A stretch of 64,000 nucleotides of DNA. Origin: Escherichia phage vB_EcoM_VR20. Positions 4,955-60,363 of the stretch are shown piece by piece; the first letter of the stretch is position 1, and each line of letters opens with the position of its first letter. The stretch is taken from sequence record NC_028894.1. The stretch is one strand, 5' to 3'. The translations under genes and the position numbers were made by a program. Under the pieces are notes generated by a model, which did no database searches, had not been told where the DNA came from, and worked only from the letters and a program-made list of their open reading frames with translations.

Positions 4955-4984
4955 TAAAAAAGCCCCAACCTTTCGGAAGGGGCT
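4955..4984 (-). terminator. intrinsic terminator (minus strand)
   Basis: Hairpin AGCCCC...GGGGCT with inner CC-UUUC-GG, followed on the minus strand by a U-run (plus AAAAAA 4955..4960). Confidence 0.55.
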
Positions 4985-5032
4985 AAGCCTTGCGGCAACC
5001 TTGTCGGGGTTCCACCTGCTAGGCAAGTGTTC

Positions 5033-5910: not shown

Positions 5911-5987
5911 TGGTCGGGGTGGTGGGATTCTAACCCACAACCTACGGTTTAGAAGACCGTTGCTCTATACAATTGAGCTACACCCCG
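5911..5987 (-). tRNA. tRNA-Arg (anticodon TCT), CCA encoded
   Basis: Minus-strand sequence folds as a cloverleaf: acceptor CGGGGTG/CACCCCG, D-arm GCTC/GAGC, anticodon stem ACGGT/ACCGT with loop CTTCTAA, T-arm GTGGG-TTAGAAT-CCCAC, 3' ACCA. Confidence 0.8.
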
Positions 5988-5989
5988 AG

Positions 5990-6063
5990 TGGCCCCATCC
6001 GGACTTGAACCGGAAACCTGCCAGTTATGAGCCGGATGCTCTAACCAATTGAGCTACAGGGCC
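5990..6063 (-). tRNA. tRNA with anticodon CAT (Met or Ile2-type)
   Basis: Minus strand: acceptor GGCCCTG/TGGGGCC (two GU pairs), D-arm GCTC/GAGC, anticodon loop CTCATAA, T-arm TCCGG-TTCAAGT-CCGGA, discriminator A. Confidence 0.75.
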
Positions 6064-7799: not shown

Positions 7800-7824
7800 G
7801 TTGTCTCCAGTAGTTGATGGGATA

Positions 7825-7854
7825 ATTATACTGCAGTTATCCCATCACGTACAC
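7825..7854 (-). promoter_or_regulatory. early promoter with -10 in hairpin loop
   Basis: Stem GATGGGATA/TATCCCATC (7816..7846) with loop carrying TATAAT on the minus strand; GTGTAC -35 at 7849..7854. Confidence 0.55.
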
Positions 7855-8132: not shown

Positions 8133-8158
8133 TAGTAGCTCCAGTAGTTGATGGGATA

Positions 8159-8188
8159 ATTATACTGCATTTATCCCATCGTGTACAT
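8159..8188 (-). promoter_or_regulatory. early promoter with -10 in hairpin loop
   Basis: Perfect 10-bp stem GATGGGATAA/TTATCCCATC (8150..8180) with TATAAT in the loop; palindromic TGTACA -35 at 8183..8188. Confidence 0.55.
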
Positions 8189-11128: not shown

Positions 11129-11213
11129 AGTGCACCTTGTTTGCTTTAAAACAATCAGTGTTATAATGGTTCTAGACCTTTTGTCCTTACCAATAACACT
11201 GACCGATAATAGA

Positions 11214-21787: not shown

Positions 21788-21790
21788 CTA

Positions 21791-21814
21791 GGGACCTTCG
21801 GGTCCCTTTTTTAT
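21791..21814 (+). terminator. intrinsic terminator after gene 8
   Basis: GGGACC-UUCG-GGUCCC followed by TTTTTTATTTT. Confidence 0.8.
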
Positions 21815-21816
21815 TT

Positions 21817-21824
21817 TATAAATA
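21817..21824 (+). promoter_or_regulatory. late promoter TATAAATA (gene 9)
   Basis: Exact TATAAATA 28 nt upstream of the gene 9 ATG. Confidence 0.7.
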
Positions 21825-28319: not shown

Positions 28320-28324
28320 CAAAA

Positions 28325-28342
28325 GGGCTTCGGCCCTTTTTT
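28325..28342 (+). terminator. intrinsic terminator after wac
   Basis: GGGC-UUCG-GCCC followed by TTTTTT. Confidence 0.75.
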
Positions 28343-28344
28343 CG

Positions 28345-28352
28345 TATAAATA
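28345..28352 (+). promoter_or_regulatory. late promoter TATAAATA (gene 13)
   Basis: Exact TATAAATA 19 nt upstream of the gene 13 ATG. Confidence 0.7.
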
Positions 28353-33349: not shown

Positions 33350-35329
33350 ATGGCTTTATTATCCCCGGGCATTGAGCTCAAAGAAACAACGGTCCAAAGC
33401 ACTGTTGTTCGTAACGCGACGGGTCGTGCGGCGCTGGTTGGTAAATTCCAGTGGGGCCCAGCTTTCCAGGTAACTCAGATTACAAACGAAGTGGAACTTG
33501 TCGATTTGTTTGGTGGCCCGAACAATATTACGGCTGACTACTTTATGAGTGGAATGAACTTCCTTCAATATGGTAATGACCTGCGCACAGTTCGTGTTGT
33601 TAACCGTGAATTTGCTAAAAACGCATCCCCGGTAGCAGGGAACATCGAAAGTACAATCGCTACTGCTGGTTCTAACTATGCAGTCGGTGACGCTATCCAG
33701 GTTAAATACAACCAGACTGTTGTTGAAACTTCTGGCCGTATCACCAAGGTTGACGTTGACGGGAAAATCCTCGCGGTCTTCATTCCGTCTGACAAAATTA
33801 TTGCCTTTGCAAAATCTGTAAACCAGTATCCTGCTTTAGGCCCGGCTTGGACTGCTGAAATCCTGACCACTTCTTCAGGTGTGTCTGGCACGATTACCCT
33901 CGGGAAAATTGTTACCGATTCCGGTATCCTGTTGACCGAAGCGGAAAATAGTGAAGAAGCTATTACCTCTCTGGAATTCCAGGCTTCCCTGCAGAAATAT
34001 GCAATGCCAGGTGTTGTTGCTCTTTATCCTGGTGAAATCGGCTCGACTCTCGAAGTTGAAATCGTTTCCAAAGCTGCTTATGATGCTGGCGCTTCGAAGA
34101 TGCTTGACATCTATCCGAATGGCGGTTCCCGTGCTTCTGTAGCTCGTGCAGTGTTTAACTATGGGCCACAGTCTGACGACCAGTATGCAATCATCGTTCG
34201 CCGTGATGGTGCTATCGTTGAAAACGTTGTTCTGTCAACTAAAGAAGGTGATAAAGACGTTTACGGCAACAACATTTATCTGGATGACTACTTTGCAAAA
34301 GGTACTTCCAATTACATCTATGCAACTTCTCTGAACTGGCCAAAAGGTTTTGCAGGCATCATCAATCTGATGGGCGGTATTTCTGCAAACGACCAGGTTA
34401 CCGCTGGTGATTTGATGCAAGGTTGGGACCTGTTTGCTGACCGTGAAGCACTGCATATTAACCTGCTTATCGCTGGTGCTTGTGCTGGTGAAGGTGATGC
34501 GACTGCTTCCACTGTTCAGAAGCACGTAGTTTCTATCGCTGACGAACGTCAGGATTGCTTGGCATTTATCTCTCCACCGAAAGGTCTGTTGGTTAACGTT
34601 CCCCTGACCCGTGCAGTGGATAACCTGATTGACTGGCGTACAGGTAGTGGTGCATTTGATACTGATAACATGAATATCAGCACGACTTATGCAGCGATTG
34701 ATGGCAACTATAAATATCAGTATGATAAATATAACGACGTTAACCGTTGGGTTCCTCTGGCAGCTGATATGGCTGGTCTGTGTGCTCGTACTGATGATGT
34801 TTCTCAGCCTTGGATGTCTCCGGCCGGCTATAACCGTGGTCAGATTCTGAACGTTCTGAAATTGGCTGTTGAACCACGTCAGACCCAGCGTGACCGCATG
34901 TATCAGGAAGCTATCAACCCGGTTGTTGGTTTCGCAGGTGGCGATGGTTTTGTTCTGTACGGTGATAAGACTGCAACTAAAGTTCCATCTCCGATGGACC
35001 ATATCAACGTTCGCCGTCTTACGAATATGCTGAAGAAAAATATCGGTGACGCATCTAAATATAAACTGTTTGAGCTTAACGATAACTTCACTCGTGCATC
35101 ATTCCGTATGGAAACTTCTCAATACTTGGATGGTATTCGTGCACTCGGTGGCATTTATGAAGGTCGTGTGGTTTGTGATACTACTAACAACACCCCGTCG
35201 GTCATAGACCGAAATGAGTTTGTTGCTAGCATTTATTTTAAACCTGCGCGCAGCATCAACTACATCACTCTTAACTTCGTGGCAACAAGCACGGGTGCAG
35301 ATTTTGATGAGTTGATTGGACCACAATAA
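33350..35329 (+). CDS. 18: gp18, tail sheath protein
   Basis: 659 aa, same as T4 gp18; synteny. Confidence 0.95.
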   Translation: MALLSPGIELKETTVQSTVVRNATGRAALVGKFQWGPAFQVTQITNEVELVDLFGGPNNITADYFMSGMNFLQYGNDLRTVRVVNREFAKNASPVAGNIESTIATAGSNYAVGDAIQVKYNQTVVETSGRITKVDVDGKILAVFIPSDKIIAFAKSVNQYPALGPAWTAEILTTSSGVSGTITLGKIVTDSGILLTEAENSEEAITSLEFQASLQKYAMPGVVALYPGEIGSTLEVEIVSKAAYDAGASKMLDIYPNGGSRASVARAVFNYGPQSDDQYAIIVRRDGAIVENVVLSTKEGDKDVYGNNIYLDDYFAKGTSNYIYATSLNWPKGFAGIINLMGGISANDQVTAGDLMQGWDLFADREALHINLLIAGACAGEGDATASTVQKHVVSIADERQDCLAFISPPKGLLVNVPLTRAVDNLIDWRTGSGAFDTDNMNISTTYAAIDGNYKYQYDKYNDVNRWVPLAADMAGLCARTDDVSQPWMSPAGYNRGQILNVLKLAVEPRQTQRDRMYQEAINPVVGFAGGDGFVLYGDKTATKVPSPMDHINVRRLTNMLKKNIGDASKYKLFELNDNFTRASFRMETSQYLDGIRALGGIYEGRVVCDTTNNTPSVIDRNEFVASIYFKPARSINYITLNFVATSTGADFDELIGPQ

Positions 35330-35386
35330 TTATCATCGCTTGGAATGAATTAATCAGTTAGAAACCGTAGAACCATTATACAGTGT

Positions 35387-35394
35387 TATAAATA
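35387..35394 (+). promoter_or_regulatory. late promoter TATAAATA inside the loop of a long inverted repeat
   Basis: TATAAATA flanked by the inverted repeat CCGTAGAACC (35365..35374) / GGTTCTACGG (35406..35415). Confidence 0.5.
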
Positions 35395-35473
35395 AAAGCA
35401 TAATCGGTTCTACGGACTCCTGTGGTTGATTCTGGGAAGCCATTATCTTGAGATGATGAATCATATTACCTAG

Positions 35474-35481
35474 TATAAATA
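35474..35481 (+). promoter_or_regulatory. late promoter TATAAATA (gene 19)
   Basis: Exact TATAAATA 53 nt upstream of the gene 19 ATG. Confidence 0.65.
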
Positions 35482-35533
35482 CATGCATCAGGGACGCGTT
35501 CGCGCGACCTGTGTCTATAAAGAGGATTCCTTA

Positions 35534-36025
35534 ATGGAGTTGACCGATATCACACGCGCTTTCGAATCCGGCGACTTTGCTCGCCCTAACCTGTTCGAAG
35601 TCGAAATCCCATTCCTGGGTAAAAACTTTGCTTTCCATTGTAAAGCAGCCCCGATGCCAGCAGGCATTGTAGAAAAAGTTCCGGTCGGTTACATGAACCG
35701 TAAAATCAACGTAGCGGGTGACCGTACATTTGATGACTGGACTATTACGATTTATAACGACGATGCTCATAAAGTTCGTCAAGCAATTGTTGATTGGCAA
35801 AATCTGTGTCACGGTATGACTAACGAAATTACCGGTGCAGCTCCTGCTGATTATAAGAAAACTGCTACTGTCCGCCAGTTCCATCGTGATGGCAAAACTG
35901 TTACGAAAGAAGTTGTTATTACCGGCATGTGGCCAACCAACGTTGGGGAAGTCCAGATGGATTGGGACAGTAATAACGAAATTGAAACGTTCGAAGCAAC
36001 GTTCGCAATTGACTGGTGGGAATAA
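35534..36025 (+). CDS. 19: gp19, tail tube protein
   Basis: ATG at 35534 after AGAGGA (the track start 35483 is an upstream extension); 163 aa; ...DITRAFESGDFARPNLF... tail tube signature. Confidence 0.9.
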   Translation: MELTDITRAFESGDFARPNLFEVEIPFLGKNFAFHCKAAPMPAGIVEKVPVGYMNRKINVAGDRTFDDWTITIYNDDAHKVRQAIVDWQNLCHGMTNEITGAAPADYKKTATVRQFHRDGKTVTKEVVITGMWPTNVGEVQMDWDSNNEIETFEATFAIDWWE

Positions 36026-36026
36026 G

Positions 36027-36034
36027 TATAAATA
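36027..36034 (+). promoter_or_regulatory. late promoter TATAAATA (gene 20)
   Basis: Exact TATAAATA between gene 19 and the hairpin that precedes gene 20. Confidence 0.55.
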
Positions 36035-36042
36035 AAGTTATT

Positions 36043-36060
36043 ATGAGGCTTCGGCCTCAT
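36043..36060 (+). terminator. RNA hairpin / weak terminator after gene 19
   Basis: AUGAGGC-UUCG-GCCUCAU hairpin followed only by TTCCC (poor U-run). Confidence 0.4.
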
Positions 36061-36082
36061 TTCCCAAACTTCGGAGACTCTA

Positions 36083-37657
36083 ATGGCAGGTTTTAACACA
36101 ATACTAAATTTTCTTAAGCCTTGGGCTAAAGAAGATGAACAAGAATATAAGCAACAAGAAAAAAATAATTTAGAGTCAATGACCGGGCCGAAGTTTGATG
36201 ATGGGGCTCGCGAAATTGAGTCACAAGAACAAAACGTCCCGTATAATGCATTGATGCAACAGATGTTCGGGAGCAATGAACCTGAAGTAAAAAATACCAG
36301 GGAATTAATTGACACTTACCGCAACCTACTAAATAATTATGAAGTTGATAACGCGGTGCAAGAAATTGTGTCTGATGCTATCGTTTTTGAAGACGGTAAA
36401 GATGTTGTAGCTCTTAACCTTGATGCTACCGAATTTAGTCAGAAAATTAAAGACCGAATCCTCGAAGAATTTTTGGAAGTCAATAACCTCCTTAATTTCG
36501 AGCGTAAAGGTTCTGACCATTTTAAACGTTGGTATGTGGATTCTCGAATTTTCTTCCACAAAATTATCAACCCATCAAAACTTAAAGATGGAGTTCAAGA
36601 ACTTCGTCGTCTTGACCCAAGACAAATCCAGTTCATCCGTGAAATCGTTACACGCATGGAAAACGGTACAAAAATTGTCGACGGTTACAGAGAATATTTT
36701 GTATACGATACGGGCCATGAAAGTTATTGTGCCGATGGTCGTATATATGAAGCAGGTACTAAAATAAAAATTCCTCGTGCGGCAATTGTATATGCACATT
36801 CTGGATTACTTGATTGCTGCGGCAAGAATATCATCGGATACTTGCAACGAGCAATTAAACCTGCAAACCAATTAAAACTATTAGAAGATGCTTTAGTCAT
36901 TTATCGTATAACTCGTGCTCCAGACCGCCGAGTCTTTTATATCGATACCGGGAATATGCCGTCTCGTAAAGCAGCAGCACACATGCAACATATTATGAAC
37001 ACGATGAAAAACCGTGTCGTATATGATGCAACCACGGGTAAAATCAAAAACCAACAGCACAACATGTCAATGACAGAAGACTATTGGTTGCAACGTCGTG
37101 ATGGTAAAGCAGTCACTGAAGTTGATACACTCCCGGGTGCACAAGGCATGTCGGATATGGACGATGTTCGCTGGTTTAAGAACAACCTATATCAGGCTCT
37201 CCGAATTCCATTATCTCGTATCCCTAATGACCAAAACAGTGGCGTTATGTTTGATGCGGGCGCGACAATTACTCGCGATGAATTGAATTTCGCTAAATGG
37301 ATTAGGCAACTACAGAATAAATTTGAAGAAGTTTTCCTCGACCCGCTTAAAACCAACCTTATCCTGAAAAAAATTATTTCAGAAGAGGAATGGGAAAAGG
37401 AACTAAATAATATTAAAGTTACGTTCAACCGTGATAGCTATTTCACCGAAATGAAAGATGCAGAAATCATGGAACGCAGAATCAATATGCTAACGATGGC
37501 TGAACCGTTTATCGGTAAATATATTTCGCATCAAACGGCTATGAAGGATTTCCTCCAGATGTCTGATGAAGAAATTAATCAAGAAGCTAAGCAAATTGAA
37601 TTGGAGTCCAAAGAGGCTCGTTTCCAAAACCCTGAAGAAGAAGAAGAGGATTTCTAA
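36083..37657 (+). CDS. 20: gp20, portal vertex protein
   Basis: 524 aa, same as T4 gp20; synteny. Confidence 0.95.
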
Positions 37658-51629: not shown

Positions 51630-51637
51630 TATTTATA
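51630..51637 (-). promoter_or_regulatory. late promoter TATAAATA (minus strand, gene 26)
   Basis: Plus tatttata = minus TATAAATA; overlaps the divergent plus-strand late promoter. Confidence 0.6.
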
Positions 51638-51641
51638 AATA
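51634..51641 (+). promoter_or_regulatory. late promoter TATAAATA (gene 51)
   Basis: Exact TATAAATA 25 nt upstream of the gene 51 ATG. Confidence 0.65.
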
Positions 51642-60298: not shown

Positions 60299-60333
60299 AA
60301 TAGGTTCCTTATAAAATATGATGTATTTATACT

Positions 60334-60363
60334 AAAAAAGGGCCGAAGCCCTTTTGTTATTTT
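60334..60363. terminator. bidirectional intrinsic terminator between ligase and alt
   Basis: GGGC-CGAA-GCCC with AAAAAA upstream and TTTTGTTATTTT downstream. Confidence 0.75.

Follow-up and report, generated by a model that had tools for sequence, protein, structure and literature searches.

A candidate two-strand regulatory module in an inverted repeat at the tail sheath/tail tube gene junction of Escherichia phage vB_EcoM_VR20

The junction between gene 18 (tail sheath) and gene 19 (tail tube) of Escherichia phage vB_EcoM_VR20 was analyzed in a stretch of 64,000 nucleotides (nt) of sequence record NC_028894.1, which is referred to as the window. The phage belongs to the T4-like genus Gaprivervirus; the closest record to the window is phage P896 (99.8%), and VR7, VR25 and SP18 are relatives. 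The junction contains an inverted repeat that, with moderate confidence, is read as a conserved regulatory module acting on both strands. On the plus strand it carries a late promoter motif in its loop and would form a stem-loop behind gene 18, and on the minus strand it holds a predicted middle-type promoter that points antisense into gene 18. The late-strand arrangement is of an already known type. The predicted minus-strand promoter, for which a conserved sister element common to T4 could be identified, is likewise of a known kind, of which it appears to be a new case.

Structure and conservation of the inverted repeat

The initial annotation had described two pairing arms, CCGTAGAACCATTAT and ATAATCGGTTCTACGG, and both their coordinates and their letters were confirmed. 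The parts of the repeat, which belong to neither strand in particular, are:

35365..35379: 5' arm CCGTAGAACCATTAT; read on the minus strand it contains the ATAAT of a -10 element and the conserved start-site box GGTTCTACGG; the minus-strand box recurs at three other promoters; invariant in 13 genomes
35380..35399: loop of 20 nt, carrying TATAAATA on the plus strand and the spacer of the minus-strand promoter
35400..35415: 3' arm ATAATCGGTTCTACGG with a bulged C at 35405; its outer 10 base pairs (bp) are invariant

The outer stem CCGTAGAACC/GGTTCTACGG consists of 10 bp with perfect complementarity, and beyond the single bulged C an inner stem of 5 pairs (ATTAT/ATAAT) follows. Compared with dinucleotide shuffles, the isolated hairpin was unusually stable on the plus strand (-17.7 kcal/mol, z = -5.2) as well as on the minus strand (-22.1 kcal/mol, z = -5.9), and the whole gene 18/19 spacer of 211 nt folded better than 200 of 200 shuffled sequences. 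What goes beyond chance are the extra inner pairs, the local z-score, the over-representation of TATAAATA and an invariant block around the repeat.

This block (35362-35420) is near-invariant in an alignment of 13 Gaprivervirus genomes, with variable sequence on both flanks. Four changes were observed: positions 35383 and 35386 in the loop, both within the spacer of the minus-strand promoter, position 35416 just 3' of the stem, and, in RZ, VR7 and TH57, an inserted TC within the inner 3' arm. On the minus strand the insertion precedes the MotA box, and it destroys the inner helix; therefore, only the 10-bp outer stem is conserved as a structure. A second invariant block extends from ~35455 over a second TATAAATA and a 5' untranslated region (UTR) hairpin with a UUCG or UACG loop to the start codon of gene 19. 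In VR26 the outer stem is lost and a separate GGGGA...TCCCC hairpin is located directly 3' of gene 18; despite this loss the loop copy of TATAAATA is kept, upstream of an HNH endonuclease gene.

The repeat is essentially confined to Gaprivervirus. An exact search for the arm pair in IMG/VR yielded two matches, one in VR25 and one chance match inside an apparent coding frame of an unrelated contig. A repeated mobile element was ruled out, as the arm occurs as a single copy at this locus within the window. When the region 34800-36200 was compared with the covariance models of Rfam, matches at chance level were the only ones found (E >= 3.5, far under the gathering scores).

A predicted middle promoter on the minus strand

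Read on the minus strand, the element has the sequence CCGTAGAACCGATTATGCTTTTATTTATAACACTGTATAATGGTTCTACGG, with CTGTATAATGG at 35384..35374. The following promoter elements are predicted on this strand:

35394..35403, minus strand: MotA box TTATGCTTTT at positions -35 to -26, matching WWWTGCTTTA at 9/10 positions
35375..35380, minus strand: perfect -10 element TATAAT, set as -12 to -7, with a spacer of 13 bp to the MotA box
35368, minus strand: predicted antisense start, an A 7 nt past the -10 element, placed by analogy with the mapped start of T4 PuvsY, TATAATgaatctA

The MotA box of T4, (a/t)(a/t)(a/t)TGCTTtA, is centered at -30 and separated by 12 ± 1 bp from TAtaaT; with a spacer of 13 bp it occupies -35 to -26, and middle promoters require an excellent -10 element (PMC2988021). 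The mapped start of T4 PuvsY is the A seven nt after TATAAT. The minus-strand element is thus predicted to be a MotA-dependent middle-type promoter, and the late TATA box of the opposite strand lies inside its 13-bp spacer. A motA gene is annotated in Gaprivervirus VR7, in a region that falls outside the window.

An early-type -10 element directed antisense into gene 18 had been proposed for this strand in the initial annotation. The -10 element and its direction hold, but the class had to be changed. An early-type sigma-70 promoter was rejected, as the -35 region agrees with TTGACA in 2/6 and with the early T4 sequence GTTTAC in 3/6 positions and a TGn extension is missing; because of this poor -35 region for an early or host promoter, the element is classified as middle. 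With this correction, a source of antisense RNA is the better supported of the two readings that had been offered. The predicted promoter is conserved in three genera and belongs to a family of four members in the window.

This family was found in a stringent scan that demanded a box with at least 8/10 matches including GCT, a spacer of 11-13 and TATAAT. Eight such sites are present in the window, compared to an expectation of 0.17 ± 0.41 from 200 Markov shuffles. Four of the eight have the 14-mer GTATAATGGTTCTA in common:

50579, minus strand: GTATAATGGTTCTA promoter just upstream of uvsY, homologue of T4 PuvsY
45548, minus strand: GTATAATGGTTCTA promoter upstream of rnlB
11162, plus strand: GTATAATGGTTCTA promoter in the gene 2/3 spacer, antisense to gene 2
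35380, minus strand: GTATAATGGTTCTA promoter at the 18/19 junction, antisense to gene 18

Three of these four also share GGTTCTAGACC around the start site. When IMG/VR was scanned with the 14-mer, the matches listed were mostly in unrelated contigs. In T4, PuvsY and the antisense promoter of the gene 2/3 spacer carry a related box, TCTAAGTCC, and the box changes in concert within each genus.

The promoter at the 18/19 junction could also be followed into other genera. CATTATAC (minus strand GTATAATG) is located after gene 18 in Dhakavirus JS98 and VR5 (51 records), in the F48-like Klebsiella phages of Marfavirus (24 records) and in VR26. When Gaprivervirus, Dhakavirus and Marfavirus were aligned on the -10 element, TATAAT and a GCT at -31 to -29 were kept in all three; the boxes read TGCTTTT, CGCTGTA and TGCTAAA, respectively, each preceded by A/T. 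Spacers and upstream sequences are unrelated between the genera, and across the 45 nt upstream of the -10 element the window and Dhakavirus are ~31% identical (own count from the aligned sequences), while TATAATGGTT and the start region are kept. Within Dhakavirus and Gaprivervirus it is the spacer that varies, with box and -10 element unchanged. The GCTGTA variant of Dhakavirus corresponds to the same unusual TTGCTGT(A/T) at its own uvsY promoter. The bracketing repeats are specific to each genus (CCGTAGAACC/GGTTCTACGG; CCCAGGC/GCCTGGG; CCTACGG/CCGGTAGG plus CCTGAAG/CTTCAGG). What is common across the genera is the predicted minus-strand promoter within a hairpin.

A comparable arrangement is present at another late intergenic region of the window, the spacer between genes 2 and 3:

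box 11139-11148 and -10 element 11162-11167, plus strand: MotA-type promoter GTTTGCTTTA, 13 nt, TATAATGGTTCTAGACC, in the gene 2/3 spacer, within 11129-11213

Genes 2 and 3 are both encoded on the minus strand, and this promoter is directed antisense into the late gene 2. It is wrapped by the perfect 10-bp repeat 11155-11164/11193-11202, which reaches -22.6 kcal/mol on the sense RNA. The equivalent in T4 is ATAATGCTTTA, 13 nt, TATAATGGGTCTAAGTCC, on the plus strand with a predicted start at ~76,000; a published table of 58 T4 middle promoters does not include it. This antisense promoter was also found in Dhakavirus and in four further T4-like lineages, in each case with lineage-specific repeats around it. 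Elsewhere in the window, on the minus strand at 7815-7847 and 8150-8180, a hairpin GATGGGATAA...TTATCCCATC occurs twice with cagTATAAT in its loop, each time upstream of a small open reading frame (ORF) starting with ATGAAAACTT. These -10 elements, too, are wrapped in inverted repeats and are reminiscent of promoter/stem-loop cassettes.

Downstream of the 18/19 antisense promoter, the minus strand appears to hold no credible gene. An ORF of 44 amino acids on this strand (35354..35488), which spans the repeat and for which UPEC07, Yersinia phage P8 and pEC-M719-6WT.2 carry a hypothetical-protein annotation, was rejected. In our own reading of the RZ and VR7 sequences it is stopped after 12 codons, it crosses the variable segment, and it is probably spurious.

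Late promoters, the gene 18 hairpin and inserted HNH genes

On the plus strand the junction is composed of the following features:

33350..35329, plus strand: gene 18 (tail sheath), 659 amino acids, from the ORF list; C-terminus 99-100% identical to Gaprivervirus tail-sheath annotations
35387..35394, plus strand: distal late promoter TATAAATA; predicted start ~35400, the first base of the 3' arm
35474..35481, plus strand: proximal late promoter TATAAATA, 59 nt ahead of the gene 19 ATG; invariant
35486..35513, plus strand: 5'-UTR hairpin of the gene 19 late transcript, UUCG loop, -11.2 kcal/mol
35534..36025, plus strand: gene 19 (tail tube), 163 amino acids; Shine-Dalgarno sequence GAGG at 35522-35525

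The copy of TATAAATA inside the loop and the second copy downstream, both noted in the initial annotation, are indeed present. In the window TATAAATA was observed 22 times versus 4.7 expected, with a strand bias and in the orientation of the late genes. Transcription starts at T4-type late promoters depend on gp55, gp33 and gp45. A T4-type late promoter consists of an 8-bp box about one helical turn upstream of the start, without a -35 element and with an A+T-rich segment downstream (PMC2988020). From this geometry the distal start is predicted at ~35400. Both boxes are exact 8-bp copies of TATAAATA, are followed by A+T-rich segments (AAAGCATAAT for the distal and CATGCATCAG for the proximal box) and have a late gene downstream, with the start of gene 19 located 140 nt past the distal and 53 nt past the proximal box. 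The second box at 35474 is more likely the main gene 19 promoter. Its 59-nt spacing to the ATG is kept in other genera: it is also found in Dhakavirus and in another lineage (IMG/VR loci L037 and L075), in both cases followed by a 5'-UTR hairpin. L037 and L075 in addition have TATAAATA within a hairpin directly after gene 18. The gene 19 5'-UTR hairpin itself has UACG loop variants in relatives, and analogous 5'-UTR hairpins are present in other genera.

To place these features, 79 loci around gene 19 homologues of T4-like phages were taken from IMG/VR. Almost all distinct gene 18/19 spacers show a stable hairpin right after gene 18, followed by TATAAATA, or by CTAAATA in distant lineages. At the 18/19 junction of T4 a hairpin plus TATAAATA occurs twice, and the first of these hairpins has a UUCG loop; in a Marfavirus record the equivalent hairpin is annotated as a terminator. 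The late-strand features can therefore be described as what seems to be the Gaprivervirus version of the ordinary T4-like junction of a hairpin plus a late promoter. A site for processing or termination of the gene 18 transcript combined with a gene 19 promoter had been suggested for the repeat; its position agrees well with such a junction, but the hairpin is not a canonical terminator, and the box at 35474 is the likelier main promoter.

Other late junctions of the window have a canonical terminator, a UUCG hairpin with a T-run, and a late promoter behind it, whereas the 18/19 junction has an atypical hairpin with a long loop. A G+C hairpin with a UUCG loop, joined to a T-run and TATAAATA, was observed at such junctions, and a UUCG hairpin also in the 5' UTR of gene 20; the sites concerned are 21790-21824, 28320-28352 and 36027-36070 and, on the minus strand, 60331-60360 and 4956-4985.

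Several observations weigh against a two-strand module. A perfect 10-bp inverted repeat is by itself statistically ordinary: with loops of up to 40 nt, 6 such loci occur in the window, including the one in the gene 2/3 spacer, versus 3.9 ± 2.7 in Markov shuffles. Therefore, the case for function rests on conservation and context. A canonical intrinsic terminator was rejected, as the loop has 20 nt and there is no U-run on the plus strand, whereas such a terminator has a G+C-rich stem and a loop of 3-8 nt with a U-run behind it; the tail is ACUCCUGUGG on the plus strand and UUUCUAAC, only a partial one, on the minus strand, and a scan with the terminator consensus did not call the repeat itself. 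The loop copy of TATAAATA is Gaprivervirus-specific, being absent from the equivalent modules of Dhakavirus and Marfavirus, and could be a by-product of an A+T-rich spacer. A covariation test of the outer stem was impossible within the genus, since the stem is invariant; the hairpin is therefore backed by its conservation and by hairpins without sequence homology that occupy this place in other genera. The MotA box of the minus strand has its sole mismatch at -26, with T for the consensus A, and the -10 element lacks a proper TGn extension. At the T4 18/19 junction no such minus-strand promoter was found, and none of the 58 middle promoters in the T4 table falls within 75.4-109.8 kb. Finally, the selected feature may be AACCAUUAUA, the conserved motif as it is read on the sense RNA.

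A rival explanation is confined to the sense strand: the hairpin would stabilize or attenuate the 3' end of the gene 18 mRNA, the two boxes would serve gene 19, and the minus-strand match would be a non-functional by-product of A+T-rich promoter sequence. It would agree with the near-universal order of hairpin and late promoter after gene 18, and because the MotA box overlaps the start region of the late promoter, the plus strand could explain part of the conservation. The comparisons on the minus strand make this explanation unlikely, although it is to be taken seriously. CATTATAC and the GCT at -31 to -29 are kept in Dhakavirus and Marfavirus, whose modules are without TATAAATA, and the Dhakavirus box variant is that of its own uvsY promoter. 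Moreover, GTATAATGGTTCTA recurs at three further MotA-type promoters, and real middle genes lie behind two of these; stringent matches are enriched in the window (8 versus 0.17).

In some Gaprivervirus and Dhakavirus genomes, but not in others, the gene 18/19 spacer contains an HNH endonuclease gene ('19.1'), for which two types were seen. RZ, VR7, TH57, DK-13 and one Dhakavirus have the first type, located upstream of the block on the gene 18 side; VR26, one Dhakavirus and one further lineage have the second, located downstream of the block on the gene 19 side. The insertion sites correspond to ~35344 and ~35420-35533 of the window. The genes are located in the relatives' loci as follows:

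L001, 1698-2303: HNH '19.1' gene
L002, 890-1495: HNH '19.1' gene
L003, 817-1500: HNH '19.1' gene
L016, 640-1296: HNH '19.1' gene
L017, 814-1497: HNH '19.1' gene

The upstream-type HNH gene of RZ and VR7 has its own TATAAATA, which overlaps the 3' arm of an 8-bp GCGCGTAT/ATACGCGC hairpin.

Since the junction is a hot spot for both insertion types, and since ~4 perfect 10-bp inverted repeats are expected by chance in 64 kb, the repeat might be the target of a homing endonuclease, the end of a mobile element or a chance palindrome without function. This is very improbable. The block is identical with or without an endonuclease gene and the sequences that differ lie outside of it, so the block is neither the target of the insertions nor part of them; the repeat is also single-copy in the window and essentially limited to Gaprivervirus, and it is invariant amid variable flanks with a z near -5.

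The insertions also bear on a translational switch of the gene e/soc/I-TevI type, or a remnant of one that regulated a homing endonuclease gene, in which the hairpin hides a ribosome-binding site. Late RNA initiated between the arms would indeed lack the 5' arm, the mechanism is common in T4 and its endonuclease genes, HNH genes are found inserted both before and after the block, and one of them follows the loop promoter in VR26. However, 106 nt separate the 3' arm (35400-35415) from the Shine-Dalgarno sequence of gene 19 further downstream, and the arm neither contains nor adjoins a start codon or a ribosome-binding site. In addition, VR26 has the endonuclease gene following and yet no outer stem, and the upstream transcripts are themselves late. 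A switch that sequesters a ribosome-binding site was therefore rejected, and the wider idea of such a switch or its remnant is hardly credible.

Two further features of the window do not involve the junction. At 51630-51641, TATAAATA boxes overlap on opposite strands (TATTTATAAATA) and form a divergent pair of late promoters in a palindrome-like site of 12 bp. Adjacent tRNA genes, Arg-TCT and Met-CAT, are located at 5911-6063 on the minus strand, in the early/middle region.

Proposed mechanism and comparison with known systems

In the two-strand module, RNA reading through from gene 18 would form a stem-loop of 10(+5) bp ~35 nt past the stop codon. Most likely this stem-loop would serve as a 3' barrier, a pause site or a weak terminator for the abundant gene 18 message. 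Gene 19 would be re-supplied, as in T4, from two late promoters, the TATAAATA in the loop with a start at ~35400 and the one at 35474; RNA initiated at the loop box would miss the 5' arm and form no hairpin. On the minus strand, a promoter dependent on MotA and AsiA would produce an untranslated RNA from ~35368 in the middle period, which would run through a 38-nt A+T-rich spacer and then enter gene 18 from its 3' end. The promoter's own conserved -10/start-site box ATAATGGTTCTACGG would make up one arm of the repeat, and an inverted copy of this box, upstream of the MotA box, the other.

The best guess for the role of the antisense transcript is an 'anti-late' RNA that would interfere with sense transcripts or transcription before the late period; alternatively it may be a primer of the ori(34) type. 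Antisense 'anti-late' RNA was reportedly observed in T4 work of the 1970s. A limited literature search for 'anti-late' RNA returned nothing relevant. A differential RNA sequencing study of T4 reports 22 antisense start sites among 150 (bioRxiv 10.1101/2024.04.04.588121).

If the transcript were a primer, the element would be an origin of the ori(34)/ori(uvsY) type, where an antisense middle promoter and an A+T-rich stretch give an R-loop that primes leading-strand synthesis in the late cluster. In T4, the MotA-dependent middle promoter of oriG/ori(34) lies inside the late gene 34 in antisense direction, and oriE likewise opposes gene 5. T4 origins such as oriF and oriG each combine a MotA-dependent middle promoter with an A+T-rich unwinding element, and most early synthesis begins in late-gene regions; a persistent R-loop and the ability to let a plasmid that carries the element replicate autonomously in infected cells are further criteria for them (PMC3016281). 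The -10/start box shared with the homologue of the uvsY (oriF) promoter would be in line with an origin, and the middle-mode promoter typical of ori(uvsY) and ori(34) is recognizable here by sequence only. On the other side, the 50 nt downstream are 66% A+T compared with 58.6 ± 7.2% for the window, where 19% of 50-nt windows are as rich or richer, and the T4 twin at ~76.0 kb is off the annotated origins, the nearest being oriE at 79.4 kb. An origin is thus quite improbable. Because the downstream A+T content is not distinctive and the T4 twin is off the annotated origins, a regulatory or interfering antisense RNA is favored over an origin, with low confidence in either.

A more general proposal is rather doubtful: that hairpin-wrapped MotA-dependent antisense promoters in late intergenic regions form a conserved, unlisted class of T-even phages. 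Their transcripts might form R-loops or primers in late clusters. They could serve as extra origins similar to ori(34) or as local sites of clamp loading, through which replication would be coupled to activation of the overlapping late promoters; alternatively, they might be the long-sought promoters that produce 'anti-late' RNA. The proposal builds on two cases, the gene 18/19 site of three genera and the gene 2/3 site shared by T-even phages, T4 (~76.0 kb) among them. If the minus-strand promoter is active, opposed promoters of two temporal classes would overlap inside one hairpin at a structural-gene junction, and both sites would be concrete candidates for a source of 'anti-late' RNA and for additional late-region R-loop origins. 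If it is inactive, the repeat would simply be the Gaprivervirus form of the ordinary sheath/tube junction with a hairpin and a late promoter.

Among known systems, the T4 18/19 region corresponds in position and has a stable hairpin after the sheath gene, two TATAAATA before gene 19 and a structured 5' UTR of the UUCG type. The hairpins of T4 and of most relatives are short, have a G+C-rich stem and stand ahead of the promoter, whereas here the first promoter is inside a 20-nt loop and the stem is richer in A+T. There is no sequence homology with the T4 junction, and here an opposite-strand promoter is predicted within the hairpin.

The late promoter between the arms, which gives late RNA without the 5' arm, is shared with T4 e, soc, 49, I-TevI and segB and with Aeh1 mobE. 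Unlike in the e/soc/I-TevI type, the 3' arm ends at 35415 and has no contact with the Shine-Dalgarno sequence (35522-35525) or the start codon.

A likeness also exists to the PeSL (promoter-early stem-loop) cassettes of RB49-type phages, which Arbiol et al. are said to have described in 2010. PeSLs are many near-identical early-promoter cassettes in hyperplastic regions. Like them, the element is a small intergenic cassette that combines a promoter with a stem-loop, and the window has further hairpin-wrapped -10 elements at 7815-7847 and 8150-8180. Unlike in PeSLs, nothing beyond the promoter core is common (4 copies); each stem has a sequence of its own, and the promoter appears to be of the middle type.

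With T4 oriG/ori(34) and oriE the element shares a middle-type promoter directed against late genes in the late cluster, a predicted non-coding transcript and a moderately A+T-rich downstream region. Here it is intergenic, whereas oriG and oriE are intragenic, and the unwinding element is not convincing.

A close match to the promoter itself is given by the MotA/AsiA-dependent middle promoters of T4, PuvsY above all. Unlike these, the predicted 18/19 promoter points antisense into a late structural gene and has no ORF to serve. It agrees with them in a box with 9/10 matches, the 13-bp spacing, TATAAT and a predicted start A equivalent to that of PuvsY, and the phage's own homologue of the uvsY promoter has GTATAATGGTTCTA in common with the 18/19 antisense promoter.

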